Below are positions 59,345-59,817 of a stretch of 64,000 bases of DNA, piece by piece. The DNA is taken from positions 50,468,001 to 50,532,000 of the forward strand of contig OX597831.1 of the NCBI GenBank assembly GCA_951406725.2, read 5' to 3'. Both the position numbers and the translations under genes were made by a program. A model generated the notes under the pieces. It worked only from the letters and a program-made list of their open reading frames with translations, had not been told where the DNA came from and did not search any database. How positions within the stretch are numbered: position 1 is the first letter of the stretch; each line of letters opens with the position of its first letter. The stretch is from Octopus vulgaris (lineage: Eukaryota).

Positions 59345-59817
59345 AGGGTAATACTAGCAATTAAGGGTTTAGCAACGAATTGCCTCACCACACACCGAAT
59401 TTAATATACAATTATTCATAATTGTAGTATCCTACGCTGATGAGAAAAGAAGTTTGGGTAAGGTAGAATTATCTAATTCTTATGCTTTCCTAAAACTTGA
59501 TTTCGAAACGTACGTCCGTAGGTGACTTAAAATTGTATGATAGATTGCCGTCATTTCATTCTCTCTTACCTGTCTGTGTTTGCCATTCAAGTGCTGTATT
59601 TTTACTGAGATCTCCCTTTTAGTAGAAAGAATAGCTATAACTCTTTGACTGCTATTTCTAAATTCGGTGTGTGGTGAGGCAATTCGTTGCTAAACCCTTA
59701 ATTGCTTAGTATTACTTAAATTTTCCTCGAATGAGGCTTTTACATGCCGAAATCTACTTGGTGTAATTAATAATTATTCCAAATTAATTAATTTCACCCT
59801 TTATTGTTACTGATAAC
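59345..59817 (+). mobile_element. ~470-bp non-coding PLE-derived (solo pLTR / retrozyme-like) element in (TA)n
   Basis: (TA)n on both sides; 59348-59403 is an inverted copy of 59659-59715; intact HHR inside; no ORF. Confidence 0.8.
59431..59522 (+). ncRNA. Type I hammerhead ribozyme, canonical core
   Basis: cctacg-CTGATGA-[gaaa..aagttt...aaactt..tttc]-GAAAC-GTAC-GTC-cgtagg; perfect stem I, palindromic stem III, GUC cleavage triplet. Confidence 0.88.

Follow-up and report, generated by a model that had tools for sequence, protein, structure and literature searches.

A hammerhead ribozyme with a long stem II in the probable truncated end of a Penelope-like element of Octopus vulgaris

Introduction

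Between two (TA)n tracts, the window analyzed here, a stretch of Octopus vulgaris DNA of 64,000 nt, contains a short insert (59345-59817) in which a hammerhead ribozyme lies between inverted repeats. The question it raises is whether such an insert is the severely truncated end of a Penelope-like element (PLE) or a member of a true non-autonomous, retrozyme-like family, the two possibilities that a sequence-only reading of the locus had left side by side. In the survey by Craig et al. 2021 (PMC8557442), PLEs are highly 5'-truncated and come with an inverted truncated copy, a tail of 30-40 bp on one side and (TA)n targets, and an inverted 5'-truncated copy at the 5' end is noted for Penelope-13_HM. 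Most PLE hammerheads are single motifs of truncated copies (PMC4209133), and the canonical stems of 6 bp, 4 bp and 2 bp occur mostly with retrozymes (Cervera and de la Pena). Retrozymes code for no protein, give rise to linear and circular RNAs by double self-cleavage, and are described as units of 170-400 nt in tandem (Cervera and de la Pena 2020, PMC7229834); a more recent study (Li et al. 2026, 10.64898/2026.07.22.740005) requires two hammerhead-bearing units, lists units of 51-972 bp under looser criteria and derives retrozymes from pLTRs. With regard to insertion, Frangieh et al. 2024 (PMC11167929) describe a PLE protein that nicks AT-rich DNA and two internal starts of reverse transcription, the span between which is the tail, and report that hammerhead cleavage is dispensable for insertion in vitro.

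Results

An insert with inverted arms and a one-sided tail

The insert measures 473 nt and has a GC content of 34% (Table 1). Its description as an insertion into (TA)n that lacks an open reading frame (ORF) holds, as (TA)n flanks it on both sides and none of its six frames stays free of stops for more than 69 codons; nor does any frame remain open from the hammerhead to the end of the tail. The inverted arms, 59348-59403 (56 bp) and 59659-59715 (57 bp), are identical in 56 of 57 columns and differ by one indel, as had been claimed. They do not, however, form the termini of the insert, since a 102-nt tail lies 3' of the right arm. The tail and the right arm resemble each other at their ends (15 of 22 bases at 59694); this resemblance was dropped, since an unrelated site at 59591 gives the same match. 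A blastn search found no further copy of the element within the window.

Table 1. Coordinates of the features of the insert and of the comparison element in the window.
Feature	Position	Strand	Details
Left (TA)n target tract	59262-59344	.	target-site duplication indiscernible there
Inverted 5'-truncated copy of 59659-59715	59348-59403	-	preceded by 3 unmatched bases, 59345-59347
6-bp microhomology at the arm-body inversion junction	59398-59403	.	shared by the arm and the sequence upstream in the family
Type I hammerhead	59431-59522	+	core CUGAUGA 59437-59443, GAAA 59505-59508, GUC site 59514-59516
Long stem II, 61 nt	59444-59504	+	4-bp base, 2x2 internal loop, extended hairpin
Terminal repeat 3' of the ribozyme, as far as the first end point of the family	59523-59715	+	
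One-sided 102-nt tail	59716-59817	+	family sequence continues past it via TATAT matching the (TA)n target
Right (TA)n target tract	59818-59886	.	
Comparison element, other family	4184-6835	+	(TA)n flanks, 160-nt tail

An intact hammerhead with a long stem II

Stem I of the hammerhead consists of six Watson-Crick pairs (59431-59436/59517-59522), followed by an internal loop and three more pairs, stem III is an 8-nt palindrome (59508-59515), and cleavage is predicted after C59516. The GUC site, the perfect stem I and the stem II of about 60 nt that had been proposed are thus borne out, with both the descriptor and the fold in agreement. A strict hammerhead descriptor gave two matches in the window, as against three single matches in 30 shuffled windows; the hammerhead region folds with z = -3.06 (0 of 200 shuffles equally good), and stem II alone with z = -2.40. 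When the whole 473-nt RNA is folded, the predicted pairing is about 0.8 for stem I and about 0.9 for the base of stem II, and about 0.01 for stem III. The palindrome is predicted to cost +2.4 kcal/mol as a hairpin and to gain stability (-9.8) as a two-molecule self-duplex, and a dimer is predicted to be needed for stem III, which fits the dimer-dependent animal hammerheads of PMC4209133. Rfam searches of the element alone gave no hammerhead match up to E = 10, the two matches returned being due to chance, and searches of the whole window at E up to 1 returned microsatellite-driven matches among the 150 of 250 that were listed. The label "textbook" that the hammerhead had been given is therefore apt for its intact core and stems, but less so for a motif to which Rfam is blind and whose stem III would await a partner molecule.

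Copies of the family in public runs

Part of the element is contained in 20 of the 24 listed public runs, which come from 9 studies and carry 5 organism labels. Contigs of four runs from four studies (X1, X3, X7 and X11) were placed on 59335-59827 at 85% likeness, and they numbered 3512, 1926, 443 and 212, respectively. Their summed depths, which are not copy numbers, reach about a million, whereas depths at single joints are 6-100; from this difference we infer that the family is abundant, and indeed very high-copy. Contig depth cannot rank the parts of the element, so that steps near the cleavage site and a 5'-to-3' rise were left unused, and the first bin (59335-59351), where depth is present only in X1, was not counted as evidence. 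None of the listed runs that contain the element is on record as RNA, and to call X11 RNA would be a guess. Viral contigs gave 0 matches for two patterns and 0 distinct loci for the endonuclease of the element at 4184; the sole metagenome match (L001) was rejected as a chance 19-mer without a hammerhead.

The copies extend past both ends of the insert. Upstream of 59398, three contigs each in X7 and X11 continue for about 20 nt into shared sequence that is unlike the arm, so that the arm, in its last six bases, has a microhomology with what lies upstream in the family itself. Past 59822, a shared continuation of about 30 nt, reached through TATAT, is present in 12 contigs of X3 and 2 of X7. 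The family sequence accordingly comprises 59398-59822 together with some 20 nt before and 30 nt behind it, a unit of at least about 475 nt; the motifs of these two continuations were not found in the window. Other copies in X7 run without a tail into (TA)n, behind 59712 (3 contigs) and behind 59716 (2 contigs). The ten listed joints fall at nine different coordinate pairs, and none occurs in two runs: 59712-ATATA-59524, in one contig of X7, is a partial tandem, an arrangement that in PLEs forms pseudo-LTRs, 59419-59467 is an internal deletion, and the remaining ones are best read as other inversion or tandem junctions. Each joint is a single contig at 85% likeness, a level at which repeats can yield joints; several have fewer than 30 letters on the short side, and two readings are open for those on the arm. 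No loose end shows more than 30 letters, and the contig pieces listed are mostly 70-150 nt, with none spanning the stretch. All of these joints, loose ends and pieces are those among the matches listed, beside which a further 237 loose-end rows and 6102 pieces exist. The earlier reading had held that copies reaching variably into a PLE ORF would mark an ordinary truncated insertion, and of this, the variable extension past both ends is what these contigs present. Separately, 32 contigs in X1 and 33 in X3 diverge behind 59684 into one shared alternative end, which is a sister subfamily whose terminal repeat ends differently.

These ends bear directly on whether the insert could be a MITE-like DNA element, inserted at a TA target and bounded by terminal inverted repeats, in which the hammerhead would be incidental. 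The 56-bp inverted repeats and TA flanks suggest such an element, but the right arm lies 102 nt inside the end, the family sequence upstream of 59398 does not resemble the arm, and arm length varies among copies of the family and reaches 441 bp in the element at 4184. This reading is already largely refuted, and we regard it as extremely improbable.

No second hammerhead core

A possible decayed second core had been proposed at about 59726-59752, inside the tail. This site reads CGAAUGA, has neither stem I nor stem III, and gave no match in a scan tolerating one core mismatch; its region folds with z = -1.64, a value equaled by 13 of 200 shuffles. Its GAAA is changed at 59752-59753 in about 97% of the depth in X1, 66% in X3 and 54% in X7, and in 0% in X11, so that the intact form is not the family majority in three of the four runs. 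The proposal is thus unsupported, and we reject a second hammerhead core here.

This weighs on the idea of a complete, retrozyme-like element with fixed ends, in which two hammerhead cores would release a circularizing RNA of 250-400 nt. The insert is compact and ORF-less, its first hammerhead is strong, and the alleged second core lies about 240 nt from the GUC site, which would have suited such a circle. With that core gone, one hammerhead is present at this locus, against the two or more tandem hammerhead units by which retrozymes are recognized; moreover, the ends of the family are not fixed, none of the listed joints closes a unit across the hammerhead, and a unit of at least about 475 nt exceeds the 170-400 nt of described animal retrozymes. 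We therefore consider a complete retrozyme-like element very unlikely.

An ORF-bearing element of the same layout

The element at 4184-6835 had been described as sharing the architecture of the insert with a different sequence. The shared layout stands, although the 4184 element is not ORF-less: it retains an ORF remnant (4576-5955) with an open frame of 459 codons. Its inverted arm is 441 bp long, 4184-4624 being the reverse complement of 6235-6675 at 99.3%, and its hammerhead, with the core at 6544 and an inverted copy at 4315, has a 55-nt stem II and a palindromic stem III and lies about 590 nt behind the stop codon. The first four and the last four bases of stem II are identical in the 59431 and 6544 hammerheads. 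The ORF matches P0031, a 658-aa protein with reverse transcriptase motifs visible by eye, at E = 8e-22, and it has the CxxC and CxH motifs given for the Hydra clade by Craig et al. (PMC8557442), whose ORF joins a telomerase-like reverse transcriptase to a C-terminal GIY-YIG endonuclease. A full-scan protein search with the C-terminal part of the frame found 2668 relatives at E up to 0.001, the best two of which (57% and 62% identity) are labeled Octopus sinensis and another Argonauta hians; word-indexed protein searches aimed at longer relatives of the ORF gave none. Pfam gave no match for the ORF itself and a weak GIY-YIG match (E = 0.031) in one of six relatives. The 4184 element is, judging from its sequence, a 5'-truncated PLE of the Hydra clade with an endonuclease ORF.

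Several further observations concern this element. It looks young, and its ORF has a long Ser/Asn-rich linker. A stop-free frame spans the cleavage site to the end of the tail (6619-6835) and is possibly an ORF start, possibly chance. The ORF remnant is closely related to the Octopus sinensis proteins P0001, P0002 and P0151; their names, "DDB_G0288805-like" or "dyrk1", are probably mis-annotations of retroelement pieces.

Homology of the insert to the terminal repeat of the 4184 element is not claimed, the local score of 150 standing against a shuffle mean of 151. Outside the core, 57 and 77 of 1000 shuffles score equally for stem II and for the downstream parts, and because this kinship is marginal, the assignment of the insert to the Hydra clade, which we consider probable, rests on layout, by analogy with its neighbor.

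Other elements in the window

A third hammerhead-like motif lies at 56863-56936 (+), with a 6-bp stem I, CUGACGA, a 43-nt stem II, a near-palindromic stem III and a UA site, in a piece of about 230 nt with a truncated SINE-like repeat on one side and a TA tract on the other. The strict descriptor accepts it, its minimum-energy structure is not a hammerhead (z = -1.02), and it is possibly another PLE end. An ORF remnant at 14959-15591 (-) has no Pfam match and no hammerhead found nearby; its CxxxxCxxC motif resembles what we take to be the reverse transcriptase-endonuclease linker of another, Neptune-like PLE clade. The window further contains a reverse transcriptase remnant at 30128-30721 (+; RVT_1, E = 5e-12), near which two stretches (about 30613-31057 and 32982-33425) are 76% identical in inverted orientation, and a Transposase_1 (mariner-type) remnant at 54681-55112 (-; E = 9e-8). 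A dispersed repeat of 110-140 bp, presumably akin to an octopus SINE, is present in about nine copies that are 71-98% alike (12809, 16157, 24320, 37304, 39830, 48413, 54579, 55722 and 62732).

Discussion

Our findings favor the first of the two possibilities with which we began: the insert at 59345-59817 is probably the severely 5'-truncated end of a PLE, presumably one of the Hydra clade, that was copied into a TA repeat, and its family likely has an ORF-bearing parent. The locus and its family display a sense-strand type I hammerhead in the terminal repeat, an inverted 5'-truncated copy at the 5' end, an optional one-sided tail, variable 5' truncation among copies, and insertion into (TA)n. 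Since the 4184 element is an ORF-bearing PLE, the layout common to both elements is that of a truncated PLE; together with the variable ends, this look-alike upholds the truncated PLE proposed earlier, at the expense of a compact, retrozyme-like family with fixed ends. The tail of 102 nt, which is longer than the published 30-40 bp, and the canonical stems of 6 bp, 4 bp and 2 bp speak against a PLE.

The canonical stems, together with the very high abundance across five organism labels and the lack of any ORF in the 473 nt, would also suit a parent that is itself a non-autonomous derivative of a PLE, ORF-less, at least about 475 nt long and equipped with one hammerhead, which a Hydra-clade PLE would mobilize in trans and of which this locus would be a truncated, inverted copy. 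Non-autonomous PLE derivatives exist, as illustrated by MRC1 (PMC8557442), and retrozyme monomers are related to pLTRs (10.64898/2026.07.22.740005). The distribution of variants among copies points faintly in the same direction: none of 30 core and inner-helix positions is variant, as against 39 of 384 other positions (one-sided p = 0.046), for a set that was picked after the data had been seen and that omits the 5' strand of stem I, where two variants both leave a G-U pair, and three stem III loop positions, which include one variant. The distal part of stem II is the most variable piece of the ribozyme, and its 8 variants in part retain and in part break pairs, so that the distribution as a whole offers a slight hint of selection on the ribozyme. 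Against such a parent, most copies of any PLE family are expected to be short terminal fragments, and the sibling at 4184, with the same layout and type of ribozyme, has an ORF. As the hammerhead of this sibling lies so far past the stop codon, no ORF would be expected within the 35 nt that are present upstream of the hammerhead here. We regard an ORF-less parent as possible though doubtful.

For the truncated PLE that we prefer, a scheme can be drawn that would connect what is observed, namely the layout, the target, the microhomologies and the variable ends, by steps that we infer from PMC11167929. The GIY-YIG endonuclease of the element would nick (TA)n, and the reverse transcriptase would start inside the RNA at two nearby sites, at about 59817 and about 59715, the latter being the likely first start site by analogy with that system. 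The span between the two sites would remain as the one-sided tail. The longer cDNA would stop about 35 nt upstream of the hammerhead core, and the shorter cDNA of 56 nt would join it head to head through the 6-bp microhomology. The resulting copy would be dead on arrival, a poor self-cutter that is unable to release a circle, because it lacks an ORF and its one hammerhead is predicted to acquire stem III only in a dimer.

Comparison with described systems places the insert close to several of them. The PLEs of the Hydra clade with a C-terminal endonuclease, including Hydra-1_Obim of Octopus bimaculoides, share with it a hammerhead near the 3' end, (TA)n, an inverted copy and a short palindromic stem III (PMC8557442). 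They differ in a stem II of at most about 26 nt in 26 rows of File S2, judged by eye, as against 61 nt in the insert and 55 nt at 6544, and in a tail of 30-40 bp as against 102 nt (PMC8557442); the hammerhead of Hydra-1_Obim also has a sequence other than that at 59431. None of six short motifs was present in the supplement of PMC8557442, where line breaks can hide a match. Insertions of EN+ PLEs, and of the Poseidon element PAc, are alike in their one-sided tail, two near end points, RNA that continues past the insertion end and AT-rich target, although the ORF of PAc starts inside the hammerhead, unlike the insert (PMC11167929). Animal non-LTR retrozymes resemble it as ORF-less, low-GC, high-copy elements with a type I hammerhead and canonical stems (PMC7229834, 10.64898/2026.07.22.740005), whereas the insert has a single hammerhead, is not tandem, carries an inverted arm and a tail, and belongs to a unit of more than 400 nt. 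Widely spaced core halves, 35-55 nt apart, are likewise found in Selaginella PLE-X1, whose hammerheads have a long stem II, and in Naiads with their "half-core" motifs (PMC8557442, Files S1 and S2), but these are marked there as deviating or incomplete, in contrast to the hammerhead at 59431 with three stems and a core that are intact. In the open literature, neither this family nor a cephalopod PLE hammerhead with a long stem II was found described. Most likely, the long stem II is the only new detail of an otherwise ordinary PLE insertion pattern.

A bolder proposal would be that of an abundant, ORF-less, PLE-mobilized octopod family with, at its center, a hammerhead in which internal loops dock the 61-nt stem II on stem I. 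This hammerhead would be part of a long-stem-II set, with three unrelated examples in the window, that is missed by Rfam and by short-stem descriptors, and the family would spread by PLE-type truncated and inverted insertions, not as tandem retrozyme arrays. We consider this unlikely.

As we read it, then, the insert is ordinary retroelement debris. It indicates that a stem II of 55-61 nt can occur in the PLE hammerheads of this lineage, a form that is missed by Rfam and would be missed as well by a search with a 7-17-nt spacer, as used in PMC8557442, and ribozyme counts in such genomes may for this reason be too low. The abundance of the family would permit a genome-wide test of the two-start-site model for tails of 100-160 nt. 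If the parent were ORF-less, the family would represent a dispersed intermediate between the terminal repeats of PLEs and tandem retrozymes.
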